Shown here in pieces: positions 1 through 25,975 of a stretch of 29,639 bases of DNA. The position numbers and the translations under genes were made by a program. A model generated the notes under the pieces. That model did no database searches and was not told the origin of the DNA. It saw only the letters and a program-made list of their open reading frames with translations. The first letter of the stretch is position 1, and the number at the start of each line of letters is the position of its first letter. The stretch lies in UHGV virus genome UHGV-0037185, one strand, 5' to 3'. Source of the stretch: a virus.

Positions 1-49
1 CCATTTTAGTTAATTTATCCTTATAAAACAAACGGATAAAACAAAAACA

Positions 50-1213
50 TCACTCATCATCTTCTGTTTCATACTCCACATCAGAAAGCCTGACCTCAAG
101 CTCCAGGGACGTCGTGAAGCCGCTATTATTCAGAAAATGTGTCACCTTAGTGATTGTCCAGTCCTGCTCGTCTATGACGCGCTTAAAGCCAGACACTCTG
201 ACCGGTGTTTCCGTGTAAATATCTGCCCGACCAGTGGCAAGGCTGATGGAGAACTCCGCAACGCCCCGTTGCAGTTTGTCCCACTTCGCCTGAGCGGCGC
301 GCATGGCCTGCGCTTTCGTGGCATATACCGTGGTCAGGGCAAAAACGTTGTCAGCCTCACCGGCCATGTATTCACCTTCGCGCGCTTCCGGTACTTTTGG
401 CGCTTTCTTCTGCGTGACCGGTTTCGCTTTCGGGTGCTCCAGTGCGCGCAGGTGTTTCTCTTTCTTTTTGCGTTTCAGTTTTACCTTCTGCTTTTGCGGC
501 TTCGGGTCTTTGGTGTGTAACCACTTTGCCGTTACGCCGGTGTAGGCTCCACGGTCAGCAATCGCAAAATGATGACGGTCGCCGTCGCTGCGGGTGATGG
601 TAATCTGCGGGATTTTTTTACCGCTGGCCGTCACCCCCTGCCCCGCTTTGAGAAACAACAATTTTCCCATTTTTACCGACACCTCACCGCCGTTGCGTTC
701 AGCAAGGCGGGTCAGGAATTTTGCATCAGACTCCTGCGACTGGTCGATGTGCGGGATTTTAATTCCGGCCAGTGACGGAGCGACACTGGCTTCCAGCCTG
801 TTACGGGAGGCTATCGCCTCAACAATCGCACCGAGCGTGGTGTCATGCCATGAGCCTTCCCGGCGGGAATTGAGCGTCCCGCGAAAATCTGCACTCCGGG
901 CGCGGATGGTAACCACATCCGGCGCGCCCCGGTGTTCAACCTCATCAACGGTAAATTTCCCTTTGCATACCAGGGCAAAACCTTTCCAGCCGATATACAC
1001 CGTCAGGACAGCGCCACGAACCGGCAGCCCGACCTGCCCGTCGGCATCGTTCAGTTCAATATCAAGCTGGTCAGCCTCAAAGCCCCGGTTATCCGTCAGG
1101 GTCATGCTCATCAGACGGTCGCTGATATTGCCGGTAATATCCCTGCTGTCGAGCATCAGCATGTAATCCGGCGTCAGCGTACTGCCTGCATCAAATGTCA
1201 GCGCATCCAGCAT
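50..1213 (-). CDS. D: Phage tail protein gpD (P2 D-like)
   Basis: 387-aa ORF, same length as P2 gpD; last gene of the FI-FII-E-T-U-D tail operon by synteny; start ATG overlaps the gpU stop (TAATG). Confidence 0.9.
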   Translation of the reverse strand: MLDALTFDAGSTLTPDYMLMLDSRDITGNISDRLMSMTLTDNRGFEADQLDIELNDADGQVGLPVRGAVLTVYIGWKGFALVCKGKFTVDEVEHRGAPDVVTIRARSADFRGTLNSRREGSWHDTTLGAIVEAIASRNRLEASVAPSLAGIKIPHIDQSQESDAKFLTRLAERNGGEVSVKMGKLLFLKAGQGVTASGKKIPQITITRSDGDRHHFAIADRGAYTGVTAKWLHTKDPKPQKQKVKLKRKKKEKHLRALEHPKAKPVTQKKAPKVPEAREGEYMAGEADNVFALTTVYATKAQAMRAAQAKWDKLQRGVAEFSISLATGRADIYTETPVRVSGFKRVIDEQDWTITKVTHFLNNSGFTTSLELEVRLSDVEYETEDDE

Positions 1214-1692
1214 TATCCCGCCCCCGTCATACCCGTGAATTTAGTCGCCATACTGCCAGCCTTACCGATGAGCGATTCCGCCTGTTTACCGATATCGCCA
1301 TAAAGCGCGGCCAGTGATTCATCAACGCGGGTGAGCGACAGCGTAAAATCAATTTTTCGGGGTGTGCCGTCTGCAAAGAAAATACTCCCTGTTTCACTCA
1401 CCCTGCTGATGACATACATGCCGTAAATCATGCCGGTGCCATCCAGCAACGGCCACGCCCGGCCTTCATCTGCCATCAGTCTGAGCGTGGTCATCGTCAG
1501 CTTGCCGCCGGTCAGTTCGGGATAAAGCACACCGGCAAGCGTCATGTTTTCCTCACCAACGCCGAGAAACTGGTAGGCATCCCGTTTACCGATACGGGAA
1601 TTTGACGGCCAGCGATAATCTGATTCACGCTGCATGGTCTGGTGTGGCAGCGTCTGGCGCATAAAAACAAACATACCTAACGCGAGCATCAT
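1213..1692 (-). CDS. U: Phage tail protein gpU
   Basis: 159-aa ORF, same length as P2 gpU; position between T and D. Confidence 0.9.
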   Translation of the reverse strand: MMLALGMFVFMRQTLPHQTMQRESDYRWPSNSRIGKRDAYQFLGVGEENMTLAGVLYPELTGGKLTMTTLRLMADEGRAWPLLDGTGMIYGMYVISRVSETGSIFFADGTPRKIDFTLSLTRVDESLAALYGDIGKQAESLIGKAGSMATKFTGMTGAG

Positions 1693-1706
1693 TTTTCGTC
1701 ACCCCC

Positions 1707-4153
1707 TTAACCGTCATGCATCATGCTGGCACGGGCGCGCGCACGTTTATCCCGCTCGTATTTTTCGAGCGCATCCTGTAACTGGCGGTCAAGCTGTGCC
1801 CCCGGCGCAGTACCACCCGTCAGGCTGATGTGATATTCGTTTTTACTCTGGTCCACATAAGAGCGACCAGCCGGTGCCGTGACCGGCTGATAAGCCTGAT
1901 AGCCTGCATAAGAGCTGGTCGCCGGAATATAACCACCGGTGCCATACGTGGCGGCATGAGTCCTTGCGGCGGTCTGGTCAAGTGTGTCTGACTCTTTGTT
2001 GATAACCCCGAGTTTTTCCAGTACCCAGTCAATACCGCTGCGCAGTTTGTTGAACGCATTAAGCGGCAGCATCAACGCGTCAGCCAGTGCCTGCCCGAAC
2101 ATGACGCCCGTGTCACGGCAACGGTTCAGGGTGTCCTGGGTGGCTTTAACCGGGGCAATCAGGTTTTTAAACCACTGCCACGCGGCCTGTAACTTTTCGC
2201 CCAGCCAGTCAAACACCGGCTTCAGTGGCGTGAACAGTTCTCCCACCGGCGCAAATGCCGCTTTCAGCCCTTCCACCACACCGCCAAAGAATGCGCTGAC
2301 AGGCTCCCAGTATTTACGGATAAGCAACGCCCCGGCGACAATGGCGGCCACCACGGCCACAACCGGCCAGCTAATCGCCCCGATGGTCGTCATAACAGCA
2401 CTGCTAACCGTCGTGAAGATTGCCCCCATTGCGCCTGCTGCCGCGATAATGGCATTGATGCCGGTGATAACCGGCCAGGCTACAAGACCAATGGCACCGA
2501 TGATGCCAATAAGCGCCAGCGCGCCACCGACAATGAGGCCGATGGTTGACGCCAGTGATTTGTTTTTCTGGATCCAGCCGTCGAGTTTTAACACATACTT
2601 TGTGGCCGTCTGAGTGAGCTTACGCAGTGCGCCTTCCTGCTGGTCAAACAGGTCAGTCCCCACTGCCTCATAAGCGGACTGAAACTCTTTAAAGTCACCG
2701 CCTAGGTTGTCCTGCATGATATTTACCAGCTCGGCGGTCTTCCCGTCTGAGGCTTTAAACGCAGCGGTCAGTTTGTCCAGCTTTCCGGTTGAGGCGGCAG
2801 TCATCAGCACGGCGGCGGCTGAGCTGGCCTCCTCCCCGAAAATAGTTTTCATGTATTCAGCCTGCTGGGCAGTACCGAGCCGGTTTTTCTCAAAACTGGC
2901 CTGCATTTCTTTCAGAATGGTAAATATTGGCCGGGTGTTTCCCTTGCTGTCTGAGGTTTTCACTCCAAGCTCTTTGAGTGCATCCCATGCTTTTCCCGTC
3001 GGTGCCTGCAGGCGGCTTAATACGGCACGGCTTCCCGTCCCCGCCATTGAGCCTGTGATTTTTGCATCATGCAGCGCCCCGACCATTGCGGCGGTTTCTT
3101 CAATGCTGACATCGGCATTTTTTGCCACAGGTGCGGCATAGGTCAGCGCATCGCTCATGCCGTCAAAATCGGCGGCGGTTTTGTTCATCGTCATGGAGAG
3201 AACATCCCCGATATGAGCGACCTTATCGTTTGAAAGCTGAAAGGCGGATTTCATCCCCATCAGCAGGGCGGCGTTTTCTTCCATCGTGCGGCGGTTCGCC
3301 AGCGCCATATTCAGCGTGACCGGCGTTGCCGCCTGAATGGCATCAACATCCCCACCCGCTTTCGCGATGATTATCTGTGCACCGGCCGCATCATCCGCCG
3401 AGGCGGCGGTATTGTCGCCGAGCTGGCGCGCCTGTTTGCGTAGTGCGGTCATTTCGGCGGAGTCTTTTGCCACTCCGAGCACGGCCTGCAATTCTGAGTT
3501 TTTCTGCGCAAACTCATAACCGGGCATCAGCAGCTTAACTCCGGCCATCGTTCCCGCCGCCGCAATCCCCACACCGGCAGCGCCACTGAGGCCATATTTC
3601 CGGCCAGTTCCTTTCCGGCCTGATAACGCTGTTTGACTGCGTTAAGTTTTGCCTGTTGCGCACTGACACGCGCCAGCGCGTCGCGCTGACGGTTAAGCTG
3701 TGCGGTGGTTTCACTGATACGGTTTTTCAGCCCCTGCTCATCATGTGCAAGATTGCGGGTATTAATTCCCACAACGGCCAGTTCCCGCTGCTGGCGTTTA
3801 ACGGAATCCGTCAGGCGGTTATATTTCGCCTGTAAGTCCTCCGCCGCACGCTTTGCGGATTCCAGCACTTTCGCCTGAGCACGTGTCGGACGTTCGGTGT
3901 TTTTAAACTGTGTGGCAAGGGCTTCGGCCTCCTGCCGTGCCTTTTCAAGTGCATGACCAGTCACGGCGAGCTGTGCACTGGTCTTGCGAAATCCCTCAAT
4001 ACGGGATGCGTGACCGTTCAGCTCGCGCAGTGATTTTTGTGTTTCCCGGATATCCCCCGACAGCGACTTACTCGCTGTGCGGATGGATTTAAACGGGCGG
4101 GATGCCTGGTCAACAGCCCTGAGCAATACCTGTAATTTTACATTGTTACTCAT
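1707..4153 (-). pseudogene. T: Tail tape measure protein gpT, interrupted by an apparent 1-nt deletion frameshift near 3578-3590
   Basis: Two ORFs (3527..4153, 208 aa, starting MSNNVKLQVLLRAV; 1707..3572, 621 aa, with long hydrophobic and Gly/Ala-rich stretches) are collinear with one tape measure protein. Span is 2447 nt, one nt short of the 816 codons expected for an 815-aa P2-like gpT. Confidence 0.8.
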
Positions 4154-4573
4154 TCGTGTTTCCGCTTCGCCGGAGCGCCTTTTCGCGCCATGTGATGAGT
4201 TCGGTCAGGCTCATGGGATACAGTTCTGATGGCGGCCAGTGAAATATCACTGCCACATCCGCCATCAGGTCATCGACCGAGAGATTTTTCGGAAACGTCA
4301 CTGCACCGAGTTCGGCGACAAAAAACCGACCACCTTACCGGCCAGCGCCACAAGGTCAGGCAGTTCCAGCGCGGCGACTTCCTGCTCGGTCAGCATCGGT
4401 GCCGTCATGCGCGGCAGCACTTTAATCAGTGCATCGACTTCGGAGTTCGCGACTGCAGCCAGACTGACACCGCGCAGCGTCCCGGCACTGGGTTTCATCA
4501 GCGTGACCTGTTCGATAACCTGCTCACCACGTTTGACCGGATTGTCCAGGGTAATGACATTTTCTTTGTTCAT
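4146..4573 (-). CDS. E+E': Tail assembly chaperone E+E' (programmed -1 frameshift extension of gpE)
   Basis: Slippery heptamer TTTTTTG on the minus strand (4319..4325) 8 codons before the E stop; the -1 frame stays open for about 58 more codons and ends in TAA overlapping the T start codon. Confidence 0.75.
4298..4573 (-). CDS. E: Tail assembly chaperone gpE
   Basis: 91-aa ORF (MNKENVITLDNPVKRGEQ...) immediately upstream of T, same length as P2 gpE. Confidence 0.9.
   Translation of the reverse strand: MNKENVITLDNPVKRGEQVIEQVTLMKPSAGTLRGVSLAAVANSEVDALIKVLPRMTAPMLTEQEVAALELPDLVALAGKVVGFLSPNSVQ
4319..4325 (-). other. Programmed -1 ribosomal frameshift slippery site (TTTTTTG)
   Basis: Plus-strand caaaaaa, i.e. 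GGT TTT TTG in the E frame; conserved tail-chaperone frameshift architecture (lambda G/GT, P2 E/E+E'). Confidence 0.7.
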
Positions 4574-4629
4574 GGTTTTCTCACTTCTGAATCAGGGTTA
4601 ACCGGCCAGCCAGGCTGACCGGATGAAAA

Positions 4630-5148
4630 TTACAGGCCGATATTGCGGCGGTGTTGCTCCAGCCGGTCGACGCCGTTCACCTTCTCAATCATGTTGATGG
4701 TGTCGATTTCGACCAGCTCCTTACCGTCCATCGTCAGCCGGAAATAGGTGCAGACCACGGAGATTTTCGACTCGGTGTCTTCTCCCTGTTTACCCTCGCC
4801 GGTGTCGATTTCTTTCTGACGGCCACGCATGACCACCTCTACGGCCACCGTTTCGCCGGTATCGTCACGCTGGTAAGAGCCTGCAAAACGAATCGGCACG
4901 GCATCCACACCGGTTGCGGCGTAAAGCTCCCAGATAACCGAATCCGGGAAGCCCCCGAGCGACCACTCCATTGACAGCGCATCGTCATCAAGGCCGAGGT
5001 CTACCGGTGCGCTTCCGTTCATCCCCGCACCGCGATAGTTTTCGAGTTTACGGGTCAGTTTTGGCAGCGTGACGGACTTTGCAACGCCCTGATAGCTGTA
5101 GCCGTTCAGAAAGACGTTCATTAACTTGAGTTTGCGCGGCATTGCCAT
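4630..5148 (-). CDS. FII: Tail tube protein gpFII
   Basis: 172-aa ORF, same length and position as P2 FII. Confidence 0.9.
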   Translation of the reverse strand: MAMPRKLKLMNVFLNGYSYQGVAKSVTLPKLTRKLENYRGAGMNGSAPVDLGLDDDALSMEWSLGGFPDSVIWELYAATGVDAVPIRFAGSYQRDDTGETVAVEVVMRGRQKEIDTGEGKQGEDTESKISVVCTYFRLTMDGKELVEIDTINMIEKVNGVDRLEQHRRNIGL

Positions 5149-5160
5149 CGGTCAGGCTCC

Positions 5161-6351
5161 TTAATTGCTGTTAACCGAGGTGACCAGATTTGCCAGGTAT
5201 TTATCGGTAATACGCTGGCGCAGGGTCAGGTTTTCAAGAGGAGGCACCGGGGTATAGTCGTAGTCGATATACAGTTTTCCGGCCTTGAGGGTTTCCGCAT
5301 CGTTGGATTCTTCGCTGAACCAGCAGGTCGCATCCACGATATAGCCGTTTGTTTTCAGCTCACGGAATTTGGCATTGATGCCGTCAACGATGTCGCGAAT
5401 CAGCGTTGCGGTGATGGGCTTGTCCACCGCCCACATGTGCGCCTCAGCCATCGTGTCGGCCAGCACCTGCGCGGTGCGGGTGTAGTTTTCAAAAAGGAAC
5501 AGCGGGTCATCAGAGCAGGTACGGTTACCCCAGAATCGGAAACCGTCGCGGCGAATCAGCGTAGTGACGCCTGACTCGTTAAGCAGGTCAGCATCGGTGC
5601 CGGACTCCTGCAAATCCCAGAATACAGAGGCGCTGATGCCGGTAACACCGTTTACCCCGACGTTGGACAGCGTTTTATGCCAGCCCTGCTCCTGGTCGAT
5701 TTTGGCACGCAGACCCAGCGCACGGGCGGTGGCATACGCGGTGGCGGTGGTACTGGTGACCGTATCCCATGCGAGGAAATCCGGCCAGATGACCATCAGC
5801 TCACGCTGGCTGAAATTCTGGCGGTAGGCTTTCACCTCGGAAATGGTTTTACAGCCCCATGCGCTGATATATCCGAAAGCGCGCAGCTTCTGACAGACTG
5901 ATGCCAGTGCAACAGCCACCTCTTTGGTATCCAGCCCCGGCACACCAAGAATACGCGGTTTAACACCGGTTACCGACTCCGCCGCCAGCAGGGCTTTCAG
6001 TCCGGTGTACTGACCGTTTTCGTCAGTGGTGCCGATGATATTGGAAACGGTCTGCGCGAGTTTCGTTTCCTCGTCGTCGCCGGTGCCGTCTTCCACACGC
6101 ACGACAACGGTGACCGGTTTTGACTGGTCGGCGATGGCCTGCAACGATGCCGCCAGCGTGCCTTTTTTACCGGCCTTTGCAATTGCGCTCTGCACATTGG
6201 TAATCAGCACCGGTTTATTGAGGGGGAAGGTTTCCGCATCCGCATCGCTGGCCGTGCAGACCATGCCGACAATGGCAGTGGATACGGTGGAAATGACGCG
6301 GGTGCCGTCGTTAATCTCCAGCACCTGCACGCCGTGATGATAGTCACTCAT
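5161..6351 (-). CDS. FI: Contractile tail sheath protein gpFI
   Basis: 396-aa ORF, same length and position as P2 FI. Confidence 0.92.
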   Translation of the reverse strand: MSDYHHGVQVLEINDGTRVISTVSTAIVGMVCTASDADAETFPLNKPVLITNVQSAIAKAGKKGTLAASLQAIADQSKPVTVVVRVEDGTGDDEETKLAQTVSNIIGTTDENGQYTGLKALLAAESVTGVKPRILGVPGLDTKEVAVALASVCQKLRAFGYISAWGCKTISEVKAYRQNFSQRELMVIWPDFLAWDTVTSTTATAYATARALGLRAKIDQEQGWHKTLSNVGVNGVTGISASVFWDLQESGTDADLLNESGVTTLIRRDGFRFWGNRTCSDDPLFLFENYTRTAQVLADTMAEAHMWAVDKPITATLIRDIVDGINAKFRELKTNGYIVDATCWFSEESNDAETLKAGKLYIDYDYTPVPPLENLTLRQRITDKYLANLVTSVNSN

Positions 6352-6410
6352 CCGTTTAACTCCGTGGTTAATGGGTGAGTGATATTTTCAGTTGTGCCGG
6401 AGATGTCAGG

Positions 6411-7010
6411 CTATTTGTCCCGGTTGGCTAAGGGATGACACAATTTATTTTTTGTCACTGAGGCGGGGAATTTTTTATAGAGCGTGGACAGGCCAATATC
6501 AAAAATCAGTGCCACGCGTTGACGTGATTCCCCTGCAGCCAGCAACCGCCCGGCCTGCTCCCACTCACTCGCGGTGAGTTTCGGACGTCTGCCACCAATA
6601 CGACCTTTAGCTCTGGCCGCTTCCAGTCCGGCGCGTGTCCGCTCGACAATGAGTTCTCGCTCCATTTCAGCCAGGGCACCCATCACATGAAAGAAAAAAC
6701 GCCCCATCGGCGTGCTGGTATCAATGGCATCCGTCAGGCTGCGAAAATTAATGCCGCGTTCGCGCAGCTCCTCAACCAGAATGACCAGATGCCGCATACT
6801 ACGCCCCAGCCGGTCCAGCTTCCAGACTACCAGAGTGTCACCTTCCGATAATGTTCTGAGCAGTTTTTTCAGCCCCGGCCTGTCGGACTTCGTGCCGCTG
6901 ATTTTATCCTCAAAAATCAGCTCACATCCTGCGCACTCCAGCGCGTTACGCTGCAATTCCGTGTTCTGGTCATTTGTTGACACGCGTACATAGCCAATAA
7001 GCATGAGCAT
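6411..7010 (-). CDS. Serine DNA invertase, Pin/Gin/Hin/Cin family
   Basis: 199-aa ORF with the N-terminal resolvase catalytic motif (IGYVRVSTNDQ, catalytic Ser) and a C-terminal HTH; closely resembles e14 Pin as I recall it. Lies about 50 bp from a hix-like crossover site. Confidence 0.9.
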   Translation of the reverse strand: MLMLIGYVRVSTNDQNTELQRNALECAGCELIFEDKISGTKSDRPGLKKLLRTLSEGDTLVVWKLDRLGRSMRHLVILVEELRERGINFRSLTDAIDTSTPMGRFFFHVMGALAEMERELIVERTRAGLEAARAKGRIGGRRPKLTASEWEQAGRLLAAGESRQRVALIFDIGLSTLYKKFPASVTKNKLCHPLANRDK

Positions 7011-7031
7011 CCCCCTGAATAAAAACCGGAG

Positions 7032-7427
7032 ATGATGCCACTTGCCCGTTATCTCTGCATTTTCATAAACGTTGGTTTGGGAGAAGCGGCAAAACGGGAT
7101 GTGGGAACAGGTTCAGGTCAGATACCGGATATGAGTTCTTTTTCTGGCAGCATTGCCAGCAAGGGATATCAGAAGTTACCGGGAGGATTGATTATCCAAT
7201 GGGGGGCAGGAAACGCAGGTACGGGTTATGTAGGCTCGACAGGCAATGAGATGAATTTCCCAATCGCTTTTCCGTCGCAATGTTTTCAGGTGGTGACATC
7301 CTACGATAATGGTGGCGGAAAAATTGTTGCCGGGGCAGCAGGGAATATGACCAGAACAGGATTTCTTCTACGCTGTGATGCTTCTGGTGGCAATTATAAT
7401 TTTCGCTGGTTTGCAATAGGGTGCTGA
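7032..7427 (+). CDS. Alternative tail-fibre C-terminal segment (Sv'-like), silent in this orientation
   Basis: ORF reads through the left crossover site in the same frame as H (shared ...GLGE junction); Gly-rich fibre-tip-like sequence. The functional part probably begins at the crossover (about 7074). Confidence 0.6.
   Translation: MMPLARYLCIFINVGLGEAAKRDVGTGSGQIPDMSSFSGSIASKGYQKLPGGLIIQWGAGNAGTGYVGSTGNEMNFPIAFPSQCFQVVTSYDNGGGKIVAGAAGNMTRTGFLLRCDASGGNYNFRWFAIGC
7060..7085. other. Invertase crossover site, left (hix/gix-like 26-bp site)
   Basis: ttttcataaacg-TT-ggtttgggagaa; the 12-bp half-site GGTTTGGGAGAA is the exact reverse complement of TTCTCCCAAACC in the right site. Confidence 0.7.
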
Positions 7428-7428
7428 T

Positions 7429-7872
7429 ATGAGTAATTATTATTTTTCACGGACGACGTTAGCTTTTTATCCGGTAGATATGCTGGAGCTATATCGCTCA
7501 TATGACAGCTTACCGGATGATATTACGCCAGTATCTGATGAAATATTTTTGACTTATTCAGGAACACCACCTGAAGGGAAAGTGCGCGGTGCAAATGATG
7601 ATGGACAACCTGAGTGGGTTGATATTCCACCAATGGCTCCTGAAGAAGCAATACTCCTTGCCACAGCTCAAAAGCAAAATCTTATTGATAATGCCAACGA
7701 ATATATGAACAGTAAGCAATGGCCTGGCAAAGCAGCTATTGGTCGTCTGAAAGGTGACGAACTGGCGCAATATAATTTGTGGCTGGATTACCTGGACGCA
7801 CTGGAACTGGTCGATACTTCCGGTGCGCCAGATATTGAATGGCCTACGCCTCCGGCAGTTCAGGCCAGATGA
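7429..7872 (+). CDS. Tail fibre assembly protein, alternative copy (U'/Tfa'-like)
   Basis: 147-aa ORF directly after the Sv' segment; C-terminus (...LWLDYLDALELVDTSGAPDIEWP) is homologous to that of the convergent tfa at 7844..8446. Confidence 0.8.
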   Translation: MSNYYFSRTTLAFYPVDMLELYRSYDSLPDDITPVSDEIFLTYSGTPPEGKVRGANDDGQPEWVDIPPMAPEEAILLATAQKQNLIDNANEYMNSKQWPGKAAIGRLKGDELAQYNLWLDYLDALELVDTSGAPDIEWPTPPAVQAR

Positions 7873-8446
7873 CATCCGGCGCGGTGCTGGTATCTGTTGC
7901 CGTCACCGCGTCAATGTAATCCAGCACAGCGTTAAGGCGGGTTGTTTCTGCCTGCGTCAGCTTCCGCCCGGCCTGTAATTTCAACTGAATCAGACTAATG
8001 GAAGCCATTGCAGTATCCATCAGCGACTGGCGCTGTGCTTCTGCTGCGTCTACTGCGGCGCTATGCTGTGCCTCAGTATCGGTCACCCATTTCTCACCAT
8101 CCCATTTATCGTATGGCGTTAATGGGGCGATAGTGGTTGTATTTTCAGGGTAATCACCCGGAGCGGTGATTTCTTTTGATTCTCCTGTTTTGGTGCTATA
8201 GACCGTTTCACCGCGATGGTCTGGCACATATTCCCATGAGTTAAAATCTGCAGAACGGCAGATTGCATAACCAGCCTTATGTGTGCCAGGGGCATCTAAA
8301 CAGGAACATGCCGGAATGCCGACACCAACGGCAAGATATTCATTTGAAGTGGAAATATATTCCCGAGTTTCACCATCATAGCTATAGACGGTAATATTCC
8401 CCGCCTTCGTGGCAATAAGCTCGCTATTTAATACAGCGTTATCCAT
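7844..8446 (-). CDS. G: Tail fibre assembly protein (gpG/Tfa-like), expressed copy
   Basis: 200-aa ORF directly downstream of H (TAATG overlap); conserved Tfa C-terminus (...LNAVLDYIDAVTATDTSTAPDVIWP). Confidence 0.85.
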   Translation of the reverse strand: MDNAVLNSELIATKAGNITVYSYDGETREYISTSNEYLAVGVGIPACSCLDAPGTHKAGYAICRSADFNSWEYVPDHRGETVYSTKTGESKEITAPGDYPENTTTIAPLTPYDKWDGEKWVTDTEAQHSAAVDAAEAQRQSLMDTAMASISLIQLKLQAGRKLTQAETTRLNAVLDYIDAVTATDTSTAPDVIWPELPEA

Positions 8447-9738
8447 TATGCAGCCCTCACGATAAAGTTAAATGCAATATTTCGCGCACGTGTTTCCGTT
8501 GATGTTCTGGCAACACGTGATGCATCAAAATAATAATTCGCCTGTTTATATGTACCACCTGTCGCAATTGATGCGAGATTTGGTGTCAATGTTGAAGAGG
8601 TAAATGCGCCGACAGTATTATTATTTGGCCCCGTGGTCATATCCAAAAAGCTACCTGTAATATTTTGCAGCGTATCGCTCTGAGCACTCAATAACGCTCG
8701 CCCACTGTCCACTCCACGCCCATCATCCCAGCCACGAATAAACTCACCACGTAAATCAGGCAATTTATTTGTCGGGTAAGCCTTTGCCAGCTCCGGGTAT
8801 TCTTCAGCAGAAAAAGCTGCACCATTGCATTTCAACCAGCCTGTCGGTGGTGTAGCTGAAGGCCACGGAACAGGCACACCAACAGGTAATGCAGAGCCTT
8901 CTCCCAAACCAAGGTATGCGAGAAGACCGGCAACATCCTTTCCACTCAAATGAGTCAGCGTATTGTCCAGCGGTTGTTTACCTGCCAGCGCATTGTTAAT
9001 GGTGGTGCTGAATTTCGGGTCATTGTTAATGGCTGCGGCAATTTCTTTCAGTGTATCCAGCGTGGCAGGCGCACCGTTAATCAGAGCGGTAATAGCCGCC
9101 TGAACAAACGCAGTGGTCGCAATCCGCGTGGTGTTATTTCCTGCAGTAGGCGTCGGCGCTTTTGGTTCTCCGGTAAATGTCGGATTATGTTTCTGTGCAT
9201 ACTGGGTATGAGGATCCTGTGCGGCAATATGCTTTCTCATTTGGTCATCCACATACAGCCTTAATTCCAGGACTTCATCATCCACGTATTTACGGGTCGC
9301 CAGTACCACCGACGGGTCGATTTTCAGCGTGATAGCTTCGGTATTCGTGACAACCAGAATCATGCGGATAGTCTGGGTACGACCACTGCCTTCCTGCAAC
9401 TGCGGTTTGTACGTTTCCGGGCAGTTCGCCACCGCAATGAGTACGCCTTCATCATCATAAAGCCCAATCTCACGGATCCAGAATCCGCCCTCGTTCTCAG
9501 GGATGATTTGCTCCGCAATAATCTGGCTCTGGTTGTTCGGGTCAACACTCAGAAGATTCAGCGGCGCGATGCGTTTCTGGTTAATAAGTTTTGTCTGTGC
9601 CGGGTCTGGTGTCGGCAAGACACCATTTGCATCACCAACGGCCATTTGCGTCAGATTCAGCTTACTGCCGAGCATCGTCGCGTTAGCCAGCCGTGCCGCG
9701 CCCTGATTAGTCAGAATGGCGTAGTATTTCACTGTCAT
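8446..9738 (-). CDS. H: Tail fibre protein gpH (constant N-terminal part plus currently expressed variable C-terminal part)
   Basis: 430-aa ORF after gpI; C-terminal region has the tail-fibre motif GEFIRGWDDGRGVDSGR; the crossover site lies in frame at about codon 276. Confidence 0.85.
   Translation of the reverse strand: MTVKYYAILTNQGAARLANATMLGSKLNLTQMAVGDANGVLPTPDPAQTKLINQKRIAPLNLLSVDPNNQSQIIAEQIIPENEGGFWIREIGLYDDEGVLIAVANCPETYKPQLQEGSGRTQTIRMILVVTNTEAITLKIDPSVVLATRKYVDDEVLELRLYVDDQMRKHIAAQDPHTQYAQKHNPTFTGEPKAPTPTAGNNTTRIATTAFVQAAITALINGAPATLDTLKEIAAAINNDPKFSTTINNALAGKQPLDNTLTHLSGKDVAGLLAYLGLGEGSALPVGVPVPWPSATPPTGWLKCNGAAFSAEEYPELAKAYPTNKLPDLRGEFIRGWDDGRGVDSGRALLSAQSDTLQNITGSFLDMTTGPNNNTVGAFTSSTLTPNLASIATGGTYKQANYYFDASRVARTSTETRARNIAFNFIVRAA
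8899..8924. other. Invertase crossover site, right (within H)
   Basis: ttctcccaaacc-AA-ggtatgcgagaa, an imperfect dyad (TTCTCCCAAACC / TTCTCGCATACC) with an AA core. Confidence 0.7.
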
Positions 9739-10346
9739 GCGTTTACTCTCAGGTTATCAATTAAATGAATGGCCGAGGCCGGGAAATAATCCCCTCCGAC
9801 AATAATGGCCTCCGGGGTGTAGGGATAAACCGTCAGGGCGTCACCGTGATAGCATCCCGCACCGGCAAAAATGTTGCCGGTTGTACTTAAACTGATAGCC
9901 AGTCCCGTCAGATGGCGACTTGCAGGTTTTGCATCAGCAACGAGACGCTCCAGCTCCTGATACATTTCCTCGGTAATACCCTGCTCAAGCACGCCAACAA
10001 CGATGCGGAACGTCCCCGGCTCCTCGTTGAGCTGCCACCACTCCCTCACCTCAATCAGATAGCCGAGCGGCTCCACCACACGGCGAATCGCACCAATAGT
10101 GCCCTTATGGCAGTGAATGAAATACGCATCGCGGATAACAGCGCGTTTTGTCGCTTCCGGCCATTTATCATCCCAGCGGTCAACCGAAAATGACCACGCC
10201 AGCCACGGCAGCAGATTTGCCGGACAGGTATCCGGGTTCCACAGCTCACGAATACTGACCGGCGTTTTTTCAATTTCCGCACAGGCTTTTGCGGCGGCGA
10301 CTTCAAGCGGTGATGAGCCGGTCGGCAGCAGGCGCGAATCACTCAT
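9735..10346 (-). CDS. I: Baseplate assembly protein gpI
   Basis: 203-aa ORF between J and H by P2 synteny (V-W-J-I-H-G). Confidence 0.8.
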   Translation of the reverse strand: MSDSRLLPTGSSPLEVAAAKACAEIEKTPVSIRELWNPDTCPANLLPWLAWSFSVDRWDDKWPEATKRAVIRDAYFIHCHKGTIGAIRRVVEPLGYLIEVREWWQLNEEPGTFRIVVGVLEQGITEEMYQELERLVADAKPASRHLTGLAISLSTTGNIFAGAGCYHGDALTVYPYTPEAIIVGGDYFPASAIHLIDNLRVNA

Positions 10347-11245
10347 CCGAGCCTCCGGTCACGACGCTGTATTCGGTGCAGAAAGACGCCTGCGTACTGT
10401 TGAGCACAATGTCGGCCAGTGGTGCGGCCAGCTCGACACGCTGCACGCCTTCCACATGCAAAGCGGCATAAATGGCAGACAGACGGATGTCACGCCCCAG
10501 CCGGTGCTGTGCCGTGATGTACGCTTCCAGTTTTTTCACGGCAGCAGCGCGGATGGGTTCGCTTTCGGGACCAGGGTAAAGGTAAAGCGTGGCGTTTATC
10601 TGGTATTCAACGATGGCGGCAGACTGCACGGTCACGCGGTCGGCCACCGGCCTGACGTCCTCACCATTAAGGGCGTTACGCACCACGGCCAGCAGGTCTT
10701 CGGATGCAACACCGTTATTTTCACGTGACAGCACAGAGATGGTGACGCAGGCCGGAGACGGACTGGTTACAGAAATATCCGCGACACGCCCGTCGGCACT
10801 GCGACCATGATACTGATAGGCTCCCACCGACCCGGCGACGCTTAAACCTTCAAACGCCTGCTGAATACGCAGACGGTAATCGGTGTCAGATTCCATCACG
10901 GCCGGTGTCGGCGGGAGGGTCGAATCATCTGCCGGGGTGATAGTCAGGCGCGTGGTGTTGTAATTGGCACCAATCACATCAAGGTCATTACCGGCGGCAC
11001 AGGCCAGCATTACCGCCCGTGCAGCCTCATACACGCTGACGCCAGATAAGCTCACGATAAGCATTTTCCTCCAGCAGTTTGACGAGAGGCTCGGATTCCA
11101 GCGTCAGGGTACGGGCGACCGCCTCCTGCTGGTCTTCCGGGTAAAGGGAAATCAGTGTCGCCTTGCGTTCGGCGAGAATGGTTTCAAAGTCCAGCTCCTC
11201 GACCACATCCGGTGCGGGTAGCTGGTTCAGGTCGATAATCGGCAT
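10339..11245 (-). pseudogene. J: Baseplate protein gpJ, interrupted by a frameshift near 11029-11035
   Basis: N-terminal 72-aa ORF (MPIIDLNQLPAPDVVEELDFETILAERK...) stops at 11027; the remainder continues in another frame (10339..11064). Span is 907 nt, two nt short of the 909 expected for a 302-aa P2 gpJ. Confidence 0.8.
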
Positions 11246-14168: not shown

Positions 14169-14666
14169 TTAAGCCGGTACGCCGCCAGCGGTACGCCAGA
14201 CGGTGACCAGTTTTTCCAGTGAATGCTCACGCTGACCGTAACCGGCACCCGGCAGGGACGCCCAGATATTGCGACAGCGTGAAATGGCTCGCTCAATGCG
14301 TCCCGCCCGGATGTCATCCAGTGCACCGCGTTCGCGGATCAACTGAATGGCAAGTCTGTCCTGTGACAACGGACTGAAATCCGGCAGGGCAAGCTGTTTG
14401 CGGTAATGCGGCCAGAACAGGTAAAGCTGCTGATAGCGACCGGAGGCCGTGGATTTTTCACCGCGACGGTTAAACACCTTCGCCGGTCGGCCATGTGCGA
14501 ACGGGTGGTCACTGTAGTCGGTGAAAATTTCCGGCTTCCCGTCCAGTCCGGTGACTATCACGTCATAGCCCCGGTTTTTCGTCAGCGGATGGTTTGCCGT
14601 CCCTTCGGACACGGCCAGCATGTCGAGAAAGGCGGCGATATTCTGATGCGTGTTAATAACCGGCAT
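14169..14666 (-). CDS. K: Endolysin gpK (phage lysozyme family)
   Basis: 165-aa ORF (MPVINTHQNIAAFLDMLAVSEGT...) at the P2 K position; its start overlaps the holin stop. Confidence 0.9.
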   Translation of the reverse strand: MPVINTHQNIAAFLDMLAVSEGTANHPLTKNRGYDVIVTGLDGKPEIFTDYSDHPFAHGRPAKVFNRRGEKSTASGRYQQLYLFWPHYRKQLALPDFSPLSQDRLAIQLIRERGALDDIRAGRIERAISRCRNIWASLPGAGYGQREHSLEKLVTVWRTAGGVPA

Positions 14667-14946
14667 TACGGTTTCCCCCTGCCCTTAAAGCGGCGCTGAA
14701 TGGCAATCTCAATCACCTGATAACCGGCGATACCCAGCATGGAGCCGATACCGCACACCGCAGGCAGTGACAGGTCAGGAAACTGCACCAGAACAACACC
14801 GGCAACCATCGAGACAAACCACCAAGCAACATGCGCCCGATAAACAGACGCGGGGTGATGGGTTCACCACCGGCAAGCACCTTGCCGACAACAATCAGCA
14901 CCCCAATCATGAAAAGCGACAGGACGCTTTTTTCTTCTGCTGTCAT
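14666..14946 (-). pseudogene. Y: Holin gpY, interrupted by an apparent 1-nt deletion frameshift near 14812-14818
   Basis: N-terminal 45 codons (MTAEEKSVLSLFMIGVLIVVGKVLAGG...) are in one frame; the holin-like C-terminus (VSMVAGVVLVQFPDLSLPAVCGIGSMLGIAGYQVIEIAIQRRFKGRGKP, stop overlapping the K start) is in another. Span is 281 nt, one short of 94 codons. Confidence 0.8.
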
Positions 14947-21886: not shown

Positions 21887-22708
21887 TCACATGCTCATCA
21901 AAAAGGTCACTAACATCATACCCCGACTGAAACACTGGCTCATGATAGCCACGTCGGTGAATGGCTCTTTTTCATGTGTTATATAATATTGACCATAAAC
22001 ATTTGCAGATTCATCTGCATCATTAAGACTAAGGACTGTTTTTGCTTTGACTTCAGGCATCAGAGAAAAATCAATATTATTCAACAAACACAGTAAGATG
22101 CCTGCTATTGCTCTCCTGTTATTATCAAGCGGCATCAAGTCCACCCCTGGAATCGCCTTCCGAAGCAATATTTTCAGCTCATTAAATAAAGAGTCGAACT
22201 TAATTGCGTCAGAACAATTGAGTAACGACAAAGCTTCATTAATCATTCGCCCTTCATTGGAACCAATTTCTGATGTTAACTTACAAACACCATCATTAAC
22301 AATATACGATTTTTTGTTATTAAGCTTCTTCCTCGCTGTAATTACCTGTCCCCCCTTTAAGTTTAACTTCTCCTTTAAAAACTCATCACTGAACATTCTT
22401 AATTGCAGTCTGATTAATGTAGGTAAGTATTTCGGGTATTCATTTAACTCTGGTTTAACAGCATACTTGTCGCGTCCAAATTTTAAACTTAATAACAAAT
22501 GATTCCTCAGCATGATATCCTTTATCTCGCCTTGATCTCTCCGATGATTATGGGCAACAAAACTCCCAATTTCAAAAATACACTTGGGCGCACTCGGCAA
22601 CTCACGGGCCGTAACAAAAAGAACATCAATATCACTATCAGTGAAACTCCCATCCTTTAATCTTCTCAACACTCTCTCTATTCTTGAGATTGCTTTACTT
22701 TTATTCAT
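21887..22708 (-). CDS. Hypothetical protein, 273 aa, AT-rich cargo gene at the tin/old position (candidate anti-phage defence protein)
   Basis: Long ORF in a strongly AT-rich stretch flanked by GC-richer phage genes; same strand as A, ends about 240 bp from cos; no family recognised. Confidence 0.7.
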   Translation of the reverse strand: MNKSKAISRIERVLRRLKDGSFTDSDIDVLFVTARELPSAPKCIFEIGSFVAHNHRRDQGEIKDIMLRNHLLLSLKFGRDKYAVKPELNEYPKYLPTLIRLQLRMFSDEFLKEKLNLKGGQVITARKKLNNKKSYIVNDGVCKLTSEIGSNEGRMINEALSLLNCSDAIKFDSLFNELKILLRKAIPGVDLMPLDNNRRAIAGILLCLLNNIDFSLMPEVKAKTVLSLNDADESANVYGQYYITHEKEPFTDVAIMSQCFSRGMMLVTFLMSM

Positions 22709-23034: not shown

Positions 23035-23250
23035 TCAACAACGTGGTAGCAGTGCAATTTTAGACTGTTCTATATCGTTAAACCGCACGTAATTATCCCG
23101 GACTATTTCGGCACACCCGACCAACTCGTCGGGCGTCAGATTTTCGTTGACCATAATCTGCTGTAGACGGTGAACAATAGCCATCAGCTTGATATTTTTA
23201 GTGTTATGTTGCGGTATCTCGCCTGGTATTCTGTGCATTATCCAAGCCAC
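23035..23250 (-). CDS. Hypothetical small protein (71 aa)
   Basis: Start overlaps the end of the upstream ORF by 13 nt, suggesting translational coupling; no recognisable domain. Confidence 0.4.
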   Translation of the reverse strand: MAWIMHRIPGEIPQHNTKNIKLMAIVHRLQQIMVNENLTPDELVGCAEIVRDNYVRFNDIEQSKIALLPRC

Positions 23251-23690
23251 CCGTTTTGCTTTGCACGCTCAATCTGTTCATCTGAATAGTTCCATGCTCC
23301 ATCCGTGGCAACCATTGCCCCGCCAGACATCCCCGTCTCTGGTTCATACATAACAGCAAGGCCGAGCTGATGCATAATTTCATGATTAATTCTGAATACC
23401 AGACCACGCTCACTAAGTTCTTTCCAGTTCACAATCTCATATGCGCCTGTATTAAGCTGCTCAATACTCAGCAAGACATAATCTTCCAGCCAGTCTGACA
23501 GGTCAGTAACATCTGTTATCCGGGCTTCAACCTTTCGCCCCGTATACACACCCTGCACCCATTCATGCAAAATCAACGTGTCCCCGCGCTCATAATTACG
23601 GTCATTTTTCCGAAACTCTGCGCGTTTCTTTCCTTCCAGCACAAGGTCGAAATATTTTGCGTGCAGCTTTACCTCGTGAATTTTTGCCAT
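23238..23690 (-). CDS. ASCH-like (DUF3850-type) protein, about 150 aa
   Basis: N-terminus MAKIHEVKLHAKYFDLVLEGKKRAEFRKNDRNYERGDTLILHEW fits the DUF3850/ASCH pattern as I recall it; the ATG at 23690 overlaps the A stop (ORF track extends to 23726). Confidence 0.6.
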   Translation of the reverse strand: MAKIHEVKLHAKYFDLVLEGKKRAEFRKNDRNYERGDTLILHEWVQGVYTGRKVEARITDVTDLSDWLEDYVLLSIEQLNTGAYEIVNWKELSERGLVFRINHEIMHQLGLAVMYEPETGMSGGAMVATDGAWNYSDEQIERAKQNGWLG

Positions 23691-25975
23691 CATGTCCACT
23701 CCATTACTGTTGAGAATCCCGGCCACTCATCAGCGACCGGATACGTGAATTTTTTCCCGTCATAATTTACAGTCGCGCCACGCGCCAGCGCCTCAAGCTC
23801 CCATCGCTGCGGCCTGATACCGTTCTGAGCAAGGTCAACGCGGATACGGGTGATTTGCATTCGTTCCGACCGGGTCAGTCTGGCCGATGGCGCAATTTCA
23901 TGCGGTTTTAACGTGCTTCCGTTTCTTTGCTGACAGTTTGGTCTTCTATGTCCGTGTTTTAATGCGCCCCTGAGCGCCCTCACGACCTCCGGGTCATTCC
24001 ATTCGATAACACCGTCATCAACCAGATTAAGCACTGCTGCGGCGTGTTCAGAAGGTGTGGGGGCCGGTAACGAAGTATCACCACCGGTGAGCTTTCCACA
24101 GTTATTGACAGGACTCCGAGGCGCGGCGATGCCGCTTTTTAAAGTCAAAGGCTCAACGACCGGCACTTTCGGAACAATGCGCCAGTCCGTCGTTCTGGTG
24201 ATATGAATATGACGCGCGCCGAGATGCGGCGCGTAAATGCCGACCACTCTCTCGACTTCTTCCTCGTACTCGTTAACTTCATCCGACGGACTACGGGCAA
24301 CCCTGACAGTCTGACAATCGCGCGGAACATTTGCCCCGCCCTGCGCGCTGATATACAGCGCAAAATCACCACTGTCTGCGGCGGCGCGTGCAGCCTCGAC
24401 GCGCTCGTCAAACTCATCAGCAATGCTGACGCCGCGAGGCAATTTGCGTAGTTCACGGTAAGCCCCCATTGTCGGCAGGCCAACCGTTTTAAATTGCGGA
24501 ATGCGCCACGTTGACGCCCATGCGGTAACAGCTGCGGCAGTATCTTTCAGAGGTCTGCCGGTATCGTTATCGAGCTGCCCATCCAGTGCATAGCCGTCGA
24601 TATTTTTTGAGATGTATTTCGCGATATACCCCGCAGCACCGCCCCGGTTAAGATGTTTTGCCTGAAAACGGTTTCGCGCGGCTCCTCTTTCGTCGCCATC
24701 CTCTTTGAGCGCATAGCGACGCATGATTTCGATAATCTGGTTACGCTGGCGTGGATTACAAAAAAGCATCATATGCCAGTGCGGCGTTCCGTCGTGGTGT
24801 GGCTCGACGACGCGCAAACCGTAGACCTGTAAATCATTATCCTTGAATGCCGTGCGCATCAGGCTCCAGATACGGCAGAGATAACGCTGCGCATCCTTTG
24901 GATTAAATGCCTCATCGTTCCAGCCGTGATTAAGCTGAACGGTTTTACTTTCGCCTTTTCCGACCTGACGTGTCGGGTGATACTTTGACGGCGCGGTCAG
25001 CGTGATAAACATCCCCACATCACCCTCTGCGGCGGCGTAACGCTCAATACCGGCAATGGTGTTCATCAGCTCCATCCGGCGAATTTCAGGATTAGAAATA
25101 CTGCCCATCACCTTACTGATAAGGTCGATGCGCTCGCCGGTTTCCCTGTTTTCAAGGTCACACGATTTAAGAAATTCCAGATTTGCCTGGCGGCGCGCAC
25201 GCACATCACGAATGGCGTGTTTACTGGCATAAGGAGAACGGTCTTTATTGACCTCCCCGACAGCTATCAGTAACGCTTCATGCCAGCGCATACGCTGGCC
25301 TTTAAGCTGATGAGTCCACCACTCATCGTTAAACAGACGGGCAATGGCAGAATATGCCTGCCTCGTGGTCATCTGTCCTTTACGGTATTTTTTCCAGTAA
25401 AGCGGGGAAATATTGAAAGCACGTGCAGCGCCAGCAACATGACCATACAGATGCGCCTGCGCCTCATCCGTAAACAGCGATTCTTTTTCGCCATGCGCAT
25501 CCACCCAGGCATCGCAGAGTTCCTCATACATCATGAAAATCTGCGATGAGATACGGGCGGCAAACTTTTTCAGCTCCTTGTCATTCATTCCAGGCAGGCG
25601 CGCATAGTGGTCACGCTCTGCCAGAAACAGCAACGACGCGTCGGTGTTCATTTCATGGCGCTGATTCACACGCTCAATACGCGGCCATAAACGACGCTGA
25701 AAAGTGGATGTGAGGAAATAAAACCCGTGTACCGGACTTTTATTGCGCCGGATGTAGTCATAGCGTGAAGTAAACAGCGAGCGCAAAAAGTAAGGCAGGC
25801 GGTTAATCGTGGATAAAACACCTTGCACCTGACGCATCTCGTCACGTGTAAGAGGTCTTTCTCGCCCGACGGCCTCGCGTGGCGCGTTCCATGCATAAGC
25901 ACCGGTAAACGTCTCACCGGTGCCTGCGGCAAATGCTGACGGAGGGACAAAACGCCCGGAGGCTTTAACGGCCAT
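23690..25975 (-). CDS. A: Replication initiation protein gpA (rolling-circle HUH nickase)
   Basis: ORF 23690..26017; the start at MAVKASGRF gives 761 aa as in P2 gpA; contains HUH motif (PHWHMMLF) and active-site tyrosine motif (YIAKYISK). Confidence 0.9.
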   Translation of the reverse strand: MAVKASGRFVPPSAFAAGTGETFTGAYAWNAPREAVGRERPLTRDEMRQVQGVLSTINRLPYFLRSLFTSRYDYIRRNKSPVHGFYFLTSTFQRRLWPRIERVNQRHEMNTDASLLFLAERDHYARLPGMNDKELKKFAARISSQIFMMYEELCDAWVDAHGEKESLFTDEAQAHLYGHVAGAARAFNISPLYWKKYRKGQMTTRQAYSAIARLFNDEWWTHQLKGQRMRWHEALLIAVGEVNKDRSPYASKHAIRDVRARRQANLEFLKSCDLENRETGERIDLISKVMGSISNPEIRRMELMNTIAGIERYAAAEGDVGMFITLTAPSKYHPTRQVGKGESKTVQLNHGWNDEAFNPKDAQRYLCRIWSLMRTAFKDNDLQVYGLRVVEPHHDGTPHWHMMLFCNPRQRNQIIEIMRRYALKEDGDERGAARNRFQAKHLNRGGAAGYIAKYISKNIDGYALDGQLDNDTGRPLKDTAAAVTAWASTWRIPQFKTVGLPTMGAYRELRKLPRGVSIADEFDERVEAARAAADSGDFALYISAQGGANVPRDCQTVRVARSPSDEVNEYEEEVERVVGIYAPHLGARHIHITRTTDWRIVPKVPVVEPLTLKSGIAAPRSPVNNCGKLTGGDTSLPAPTPSEHAAAVLNLVDDGVIEWNDPEVVRALRGALKHGHRRPNCQQRNGSTLKPHEIAPSARLTRSERMQITRIRVDLAQNGIRPQRWELEALARGATVNYDGKKFTYPVADEWPGFSTVMEWT

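Follow-up and report, generated by a model that had tools for sequence, protein, structure and literature searches.

The described systems closest to the locus analysed here include the invertible P segment of e14, with the invertase PinE, the G segment of Mu, with Gin, and the C segment of P1, with Cin. In Mu and P1 a constant fibre N-terminus is combined with alternative C-termini that have their own chaperones, and the invertase gene lies beside the segment. These two segments belong to a Mu-type phage and a P1-type myovirus, not to P2-type phages, and e14 is a lambdoid remnant. Among P2-like phages, Fels-2 has a further invertase, Fin. In EPEC P2-like prophages, inversion has been shown by sequencing and PCR for segments of about 1,800 and 2,200 bp (PMC4272514). 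The presence of an invertase in the Z/fun hotspot, together with inversion of neighbouring genes, has been noted previously (bioRxiv 2024.10.15.618418). The switch mechanism, its location in the Z/fun hotspot of P2 and its activity in prophages of the P2 type have thus all been documented before.

The window, by which we mean the whole stretch of 29,639 nucleotides of the virus genome UHGV-0037185, carries a locus that is very likely a two-state tail-fibre host-range switch of the Hin/Gin/Cin/Pin type in a P2-like (Peduovirus) prophage. We favour this reading because of the domains of the genes, inverted sites far above chance expectation, an in-frame alternative fibre H′, a PinE-like invertase and natural inversions in related genomes. 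The elements of the locus are the following:

6411..7004, minus strand: DNA invertase gene, encoding a Pin-family serine invertase of 197 aa (ORF as listed, 6411..7010)
6915..6986, minus strand: putative recombinational enhancer (homologue of the Fis-binding 'sis'), within the 5′ coding region of the invertase
7060..7085, no strand: invertase-proximal 26-bp crossover site, pix-like, with crossover at 7072/7073
7073..8911, no strand: invertible segment of 1,839 bp, with the crossover core at either end
7073..7427, plus strand: silent alternative tip of the fibre (Sv′), encoded by a C-terminal exon that lacks a promoter and ending in a gp53-like domain
7429..7872, plus strand: silent cognate tail fibre assembly gene tfa′ (Caudo_TAP)
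7844..8446, minus strand: tail fibre assembly gene tfa, currently expressed (P2 G position; Caudo_TAP)
8446..8911, minus strand: variable C-terminal part of H (Sv), currently expressed (Collar domain)
8899..8924, no strand: H-internal 26-bp crossover site, with crossover at 8911/8912, encoding ...YLGLGE... of H
8912..9738, minus strand: constant N-terminal part of the tail fibre gene H (Phage_tail_fib)

Positions 4..6431 of the window are 97.2% identical to P2 (NC_001895), from D through FI and including the pF promoter core. The homology stops at 6431, just within the 3′ end of the invertase ORF. Since the gene order in P2 is G - fun(Z) - pF - FI, this endpoint puts the cassette at the Z/fun position, where it had been placed by a preliminary description made from the DNA letters alone. 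The genes follow the order V-W-J-I-H-G...FI-FII-E-T-U-D with high identity to P2, which we took as defining a P2-like tail module; Tail_P2_I and sheath domains were detected by Pfam, and the gene order is that of annotated relatives. In place of fun(Z), however, this prophage has an invertase and a second pair of tip and chaperone, whereas H and G of P2 form one fixed pair.

Pfam searches bore out the reading frames and domains that the preliminary description had proposed, namely an invertase, a silent fibre tip with its own tfa′, a convergent tfa and the variable region of H. The H ORF (8446..9738, minus strand) encodes 430 aa and is P2 H-like, with Phage_tail_fib at residues 1-150 (E 2.5e-62) followed by Collar at residues 287-334. 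The alternative tip ORF (7032..7427, plus strand) contains Gp53-like_C (E 5e-20). It enters H only upon inversion, and its ATG at 7032 is no real start; the ORF annotated as a 'gp53-like domain protein' is for annotators an alternative exon of H and no stand-alone gene. The gene tfa′ starts 1 nt past the stop codon of Sv′ and overlaps the convergent tfa by 29 nt; Caudo_TAP was found in both (E 1e-28 in tfa′ and 3e-33 in tfa). No interruption was seen in the invertase, in either site or in either pair of tip and chaperone; all are intact.

The invertase has the features of the Hin/Gin/Cin/Pin class: an N-terminal catalytic Resolvase domain with Ser9 (residues 5-137, E 3e-52), a C-terminal DNA-binding HTH_7 domain (residues 140-183, E 5e-13), a length of 197 aa in a class of about 180-200 aa, and high identity to PinE (86.4%), Cin (79.6%) and Gin (78.5%). 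It also matches phrog_125 'DNA invertase' (E 6e-101), the Gin structure 3UJ3 (E 7e-95) and the structure of the Hin DNA-binding domain, 1HCR. Along the stretch MLIGYVRVSTNDQ the alignment with Gin is residue for residue, and Ser9, the catalytic serine, is matched by that of wild-type Gin (4M6F chain). Translation probably starts at ATG 7004 rather than at 7010, because the resulting protein begins MLIGYVRVS... as in PinE, Gin and Cin, and the same start is annotated in relatives.

Nucleotides 19-90 of the invertase coding sequence are the counterpart of the annotated enhancer of P1 cin. Identity to the cin enhancer is 58/72 for this invertase gene, 57/72 for pinE and 55/72 for gin, in a stretch that is also under coding constraint; since 6915..6986 overlaps the coding sequence, its conservation provides no independent evidence for an enhancer. 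By eye, Fis sites could not be assigned with confidence within it. The substitution M114V in Gin abolishes the requirement for Fis (PMC3575834). The invertase carries the wild-type Gin residue Met114, which suggests by analogy that its activity would depend on Fis.

Two 26-bp hix/gix-like inverted sites sharing a 12-bp half-site, with TT and AA cores, had been proposed, and both the repeat search and the 12-mer scan recovered them. The inverted repeat 7060-7086/8898-8924 is the top inverted pair in 6300..9800, and the half-site TTCTCCCAAACC has exactly two copies in the 29.6-kb window, one on each strand, against 0.14 copies expected; a count of two was attained in 0/100 shuffles. The core dinucleotides are TT at 7072-73 and AA at 8911-12. 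Alignment with known Hin-family sites, which the preliminary description had called for, showed that the reverse complement of the proximal site, TTCTCCCAAACC AA CGTTTATGAAAA, is identical at 26/26 positions to the e14 pix site beside pinE. The H-internal site, TTCTCCCAAACC AA GGTATGCGAGAA, agrees with the other pix of e14 at 23/26 positions, with Mu gix at 18/26 and with P1 cixL at 18/26. Both sites share with pix, gix and cix the 12-2-12 layout ...AAACC NN GG/CGTTT.... No pix-like site beyond these two was found in the whole window with up to one mismatch, or in 6000..10000 with up to three mismatches and the AAACC core. With two crossover sites only, the locus is a simple two-state switch, and a shufflon of several segments, of the kind present in one EPEC P2-like prophage, was rejected.

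Inversion of 7073..8911 in silico fused Sv′ in frame to H residues 1 to about 272, giving an H′ of 393 aa (...LAYLGLGEAAKRDVGTG...), and placed tfa′ directly after H′. Such fused fibre genes are present in the RefSeq annotation of the flipped relatives AH01 and GPEC1210. The window represents one assembled orientation, and the evidence for both orientations comes from close relatives. In two pairs of related E. coli genomes, GPEC1209 and GPEC1210, and O157:H7 2-6-2 and BB24-1, the flanks are 100% identical and only the segment is inverted. The inverted segment is 99.9% identical within both pairs, and the constant N-terminal part of H is identical in both orientations. The breakpoints correspond to 7072..7086 and 8898..8915 of the window, inside the predicted sites. 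AH01, the closest relative of the window (97-98% identity), has the opposite orientation. In the O157 lineage, junction searches in the band of at least 99% identity returned 31 and 32 records for the two junctions. The detection of a single orientation only, which would have spoken against a switch, is not what these genomes show. As a consequence for genome comparison, assemblies of such a prophage may legitimately differ by a 1.8-kb inversion.

The preliminary description had likened the locus to the Mu G, P1 C and e14 P segments set on a P2 tail module. This is right, and the cassette can be placed more precisely as a close sibling of the e14 Pin/P-segment cassette. As in e14, the invertase gene is located outside the segment and points away from it, and two convergent pairs of tip and chaperone occupy the segment, with tfa genes that overlap by 29 nt. 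The segment is 1,839 bp long, that of e14 1,797 bp (PMC12529663). The product of tfa is 94.5% identical to TfaE, and the C-terminal half of that of tfa′ is 77% identical to TfaP, whereas the tips have diverged (Sv 53.5% to the StfE C-terminus and Sv′ 39% to the StfP C-terminus). The cassette of this prophage is attached to a complete P2-type tail module, with the constant part of H, I, J, W and V upstream and FI downstream. The invertase is 13 aa longer at its C-terminus than PinE and reads into the P2 pF promoter region.

Gin/G of Mu and Cin/C of P1 share with this locus the enzyme family and the 26-bp site architecture. In Mu the invertase is read away from the segment, as here and in e14, while the gix core is TC instead of AA. 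P1 differs in that the reading direction of cin is towards the segment and the 3′ end of cin overlaps cixL. No similarity of the fibre tips and chaperones was detectable in the Mu and P1 DNA fetched, of which that of P1 was partial, and a Mu- or P1-type cassette was rejected in favour of the e14 type.

We propose the following mechanism. The invertase, presumably expressed in this copy, would bind as dimers to both inverted 26-bp sites, and their synapsis would probably require supercoiled DNA and the Fis-bound enhancer in the 5′ end of the invertase gene itself. Ser9 would then cut both sites at the central AA/TT, and a rotation of one dimer pair by 180 degrees would invert the 1,839-bp segment, while the late promoter and the first 272 or so codons of H remain fixed. 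The orientation determines whether H ends in the collar-type receptor-binding tip Sv, followed by its chaperone gene tfa, or in the gp53-like Sv′, followed by tfa′. Lysogen populations should consequently release particles of two alternative adsorption specificities, and predictions of host range for such P2-like phages have to consider two receptor-binding tips.

No observation speaks against the mechanism as such; the reservations apply to this individual copy. Three genes of this prophage copy are split by small deletions, called relative to P2 and/or AH01: the tape-measure gene T (1 nt at about 3585, also relative to P2 itself), the baseplate gene J (2 nt at about 11031) and the holin gene (1 nt at about 14816). 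The J frameshift was absent from 1,505/1,505 matching E. coli records (complete genomes); the best E. coli match to this stretch has 99.0% identity, the difference being the 2-nt gap. A 24-mer spanning the J frameshift had no match among one-genome-per-species contigs. Judged from these frameshifts, the copy may be defective; if they are real, no infectious particle would be formed and the host-range consequence would be moot in this copy. The locus might then be a canonical cassette left in a decaying prophage, inverting without consequence for a phage or perhaps no longer inverting. A sigma-70 scan of the minus strand near 7010-7100 found no consensus promoter for the invertase, but the scan is crude and counts as weak evidence at best. 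We nevertheless regard this as rather unlikely, given that all components of the switch are intact and that the frameshifts could be assembly errors, two of the three lying in short homopolymer runs. Moreover, the P segment still inverts in e14, which is itself defective (PMC4272514, PMC12529663).

A truly defective prophage with an intact switch might alternatively have kept the switch for its host, either through action of the invertase in trans on other pix/hix-type sites or through a receptor-masking fibre fragment, made in one orientation and directed against incoming phage. There is a precedent in e14, where PinQ-driven inversion of the P segment leads to StfE2, which blocks adsorption of T2 (PMC12529663). 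The similarity of tfa and the expressed tip to TfaE and StfE and the identity of the proximal site with e14 pix agree with such a role, as does an intact switch within a possibly defective prophage. However, the fibre genes of this prophage belong to the P2 late operon, which depends on Ogr and stays silent in lysogens, and intact relatives have been deposited as inducible phages; a function for the host seems very improbable. The least credible explanation is that the inverted repeat arose by chance or homology and that general (RecA) recombination, rather than the invertase, inverted the segment in the relatives. Inverted repeats can recombine, and nothing more specific speaks for it. The repeat shared in the natural pairs is only about 15-18 bp long, too short for efficient RecA recombination; furthermore, the proximal site matches a characterised invertase site at 26/26 positions, the cognate invertase is adjacent and the half-site is far above its expected count. 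We give this explanation practically no weight, and retain the invertase-driven tail-fibre switch as the preferred reading.

The arrangement is widespread, annotated and published, and has little significance apart from its use for correct annotation. Thousands of E. coli genome records match the architecture, as do several deposited P2-like phages in which a 'DNA invertase' is annotated; deposited P2-like records also use 'phage DNA invertase' or 'hin'. The same position and the order FI - invertase - Sv′ - tfa′ - tfa - H are found in P2-like phages and prophages from both E. coli and Salmonella, among them 'Escherichia phage P2' from O157:H43 T22 (KC618326), pro483, Salmonella phage MET_P1_103_31 and the EPEC E2348/69 P2-like prophages. 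Elsewhere in the prophage, the cargo ORF of the old/tin hotspot had no match in Pfam or PADLOC. Outside the tips, DNA identity to the invertase-bearing P2-like relatives is 94-98%. The combination of tip alleles is particular to this copy; at least 80% of the 3.5-kb query is covered by only 2 records. The H of this copy (430 aa) is shorter than that of AH01 by an in-frame gap of 210 nt.

The window holds a near-complete P2-like prophage: D comes first, then the tail, lysis and head genes, and finally A and the integrase. P2 (NC_001895) aligns with positions 4..6431 at 97.2% identity, from D to just upstream of FI, and the homology ends at 6431. P2 has the order G, terminator, fun(Z), pF promoter, FI, whereas the window continues up the minus strand past this point with an invertase ORF, a fibre-tip ORF, two chaperone genes and a fibre gene:

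50..1213, minus strand: D
3527..4153 (208 aa) and 1707..3572 (621 aa): fragments of T, split by a 1-nt deletion
6411..7004/7010, minus strand: invertase ORF, Pfam Resolvase (E 3e-52) and HTH_7
7032..7427, plus strand: fibre-tip ORF, Gp53-like C-terminal fibre domain
7429..7872, plus strand: silent chaperone gene tfa', Caudo_TAP
7844..8446, minus strand: present chaperone gene tfa, Caudo_TAP
8446..9738, minus strand: fibre gene H, P2 H-type N-terminus (Phage_tail_fib) and Collar domain

The two chaperone genes are convergent and overlap by 29 nt. These ORF and domain calls reproduced every coordinate of the preliminary description, whose observation and whose interpretation as an invertible tail-fibre switch were both right.

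Inversion is seen among natural relatives. Positions 6300..9800, in native form and flipped in silico, were compared with 5,426 complete E. coli genomes, and equally good matches were obtained with both queries. The best relative overall, AH01, matches the flipped form (94% coverage, 97.7% identity). Two pairs of strains are decisive: the chicken isolates GPEC1209 and GPEC1210, and the O157:H7 strains 2-6-2 and BB24-1. Within the pairs, flanks of 3.8 kb and 3.9-4.1 kb match at 100% identity, while the central ~1.87 kb is inverted and 99.9% identical; in both, the alignment pieces overlap at window-equivalent positions 7072..7086 and 8898..8915, within the predicted sites. In the O157 lineage, the two alternative H junctions were counted in 31 versus 32 records at 99% identity or more, a rough census in which this band includes partial-length matches. 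The search of public genomes is the natural equivalent of the PCR or long-read check proposed earlier, and both orientations were indeed recovered in close relatives. Separately, E. coli TUM11352 carries two copies of the fibre/invertase module, one on the chromosome (NZ_CP134384.1) and one on an 88-kb plasmid (NZ_CP134387.1), which match opposite query orientations, each with 78% coverage and ~96% identity.

The top inverted repeat within 6300..9800 is 7060-7086/8898-8924. Its half-site TTCTCCCAAACC occurs twice in the 29.6 kb, once per strand, against an expected 0.14, and none of 100 shuffles contained two copies. The cores read TT and AA on the plus strand and are thus identical as inverted repeats. 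For the alignment to known Hin-family sites that had been suggested at the outset, reference sites were drawn from actual sequence records. The invertase-proximal site is identical at 26/26 positions to the e14 site adjoining pinE in E. coli K-12 (TTCTCCCAAACCAACGTTTATGAAAA). The H-internal site matches the second e14 site at 23/26 positions, and Mu gix (TTATCCAAAACCTCGGTTTACAGGAA) and P1 cixL (TTCTCTTAAACCAAGGTTTAGGATTG) at 18/26 each; the 12-2-12 layout is common to all. The site search of the window found no crossover sites beyond these two, which makes the cassette a two-state switch; a shufflon was ruled out on the same count.

As the segment now lies, the 430-aa H has a collar-type tip at its C-terminus, with tfa as the next gene. 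Flipping 7073..8911 in silico put the 7073..7427 exon in frame behind H residues 1-~272, with the fusion at the ...YLGLGE... codons that both share, yielding a 393-aa product, H', with a gp53-like tip, and tfa' starts one base later. Fused fibre genes of this kind are annotated by RefSeq in flipped-state relatives. This makes the ATG at 7032 incidental, and 7032..7427 a silent exon and no gene. In BB24-1 (5262..6683 of its locus) and SCU-316, which are flipped or error-prone relatives, RefSeq breaks H' up, calling one piece a 'gp53-like domain-containing protein' and another a partial 'phage tail protein' pseudogene; one orientation of the switch is handled wrongly by automated annotation.

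The invertase shares 86.4% identity with PinE, 79.6% with Cin and 78.5% with Gin; the Gin crystal-structure sequences were matched at E 7e-95, and the nucleophile Ser9 is in place. Since it carries the wild-type Met114, and the M114V change in Gin abolishes the Fis requirement (PMC3575834), we infer that it would depend on Fis and an enhancer. The Cin enhancer is annotated in the P1 record at coding nt 19-90; the equivalent stretch, 6915..6986, is identical at 58/72 positions, consistent with a putative enhancer, although this identity is no proof because the stretch is also coding sequence. The invertase is encoded outside the segment, and its gene points away from it; Mu and e14 share this arrangement, P1 does not. 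Its C-terminus (6411..6470) is 13 aa longer than that of PinE and extends into the pF promoter/activator region of P2. Homology to P2 starts at 6431, within the annotated pF activator-binding site, so that the invertase gene runs at its 3' end into the FI late promoter.

The cassette and the e14 P segment are siblings. Its tfa product is 94.5% identical to TfaE, the present tip 53.5% to the StfE C-terminus, the silent tip 39% to the StfP C-terminus and the C-terminal half of the tfa' product 77% to TfaP; tips and chaperones gave no match to the Mu and P1 DNA fetched. The feature is not new: it is widespread and has already been annotated. Parts of the query matched 3,836 E. coli genome records, and the order FI, invertase, silent tip, tfa', tfa, H is found in many deposited phages, such as 'Escherichia phage P2' from O157:H43 T22 ('phage DNA invertase'), pro483 and Salmonella phage MET_P1_103_31 ('hin', with a 99% identical invertase). 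In Salmonella, the P2-like prophage Fels-2 has an invertase named Fin, reportedly the subject of a 2006 paper by Kutsukake et al. By sequencing, Goldberg et al. 2014 found coexisting orientations in two P2-like prophages of EPEC E2348/69, one a simple two-variant switch, the other with three repeats, inversions of ~1,800 and ~2,200 bp and four PCR-confirmed variants (PMC4272514).

Three frameshifts suggest either that the prophage is defective or that the assembly is error-prone. The tape-measure gene T has a 1-nt deletion at ~3585 relative to both AH01 and P2, at a non-homopolymer site (GCGCC-ACTG), and the P2 alignment over 4..6431 implies a net 1-nt gap. The baseplate gene J has a 2-nt deletion at ~11031 relative to AH01, which splits it into ORFs of 72 and 241 aa (window 11027..11064). 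This deletion was present in 0/1,505 matching E. coli complete-genome records, the best identity of 99.0% reflecting the gap itself, and the stretch had no exact match in a scan of one genome per species. In the holin gene (14666..14946), one nucleotide of an A run is missing at ~14816 relative to AH01, which leaves ORFs of 77 and 47 aa that lie in different frames. Either assembly errors or genuine decay may explain the deletions. If the decay is genuine, no particles are made and the switch has no phage-level consequence in this copy. In that case it might instead act at the level of the host, much as reported for PinQ and e14 StfE2 (PMC12529663); we consider such a role very improbable. The frameshifts do not bear on the verdict that the switch is real and already known.

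In its constant part, at ~8983..8994, the 430-aa H lacks an in-frame 210-nt stretch found in AH01 and the O157 relatives (O157 H, 499 aa), and the alignment pieces at the gap overlap by 12 nt in the window. H of GPEC1209 is similarly short (435 aa), indicating that short-shaft variants are natural. In the old/tin cargo hotspot between the portal gene Q and the replication gene A, a 273-aa Lys/Asn-rich ORF (21887..22708, minus strand) is a candidate accessory or defence gene; it had no match in Pfam or PADLOC, its sole match was phrog_29586 of unknown function (E 8e-180), and AH01 has a DEAD/DEAH helicase at this position. Directly downstream of A, a 162-aa ORF (23238..23726, minus strand) has DUF3850/ASCH and DUF7415 domains and one weaker PHROG match, phrog_986, labelled 'RNA-binding protein'.
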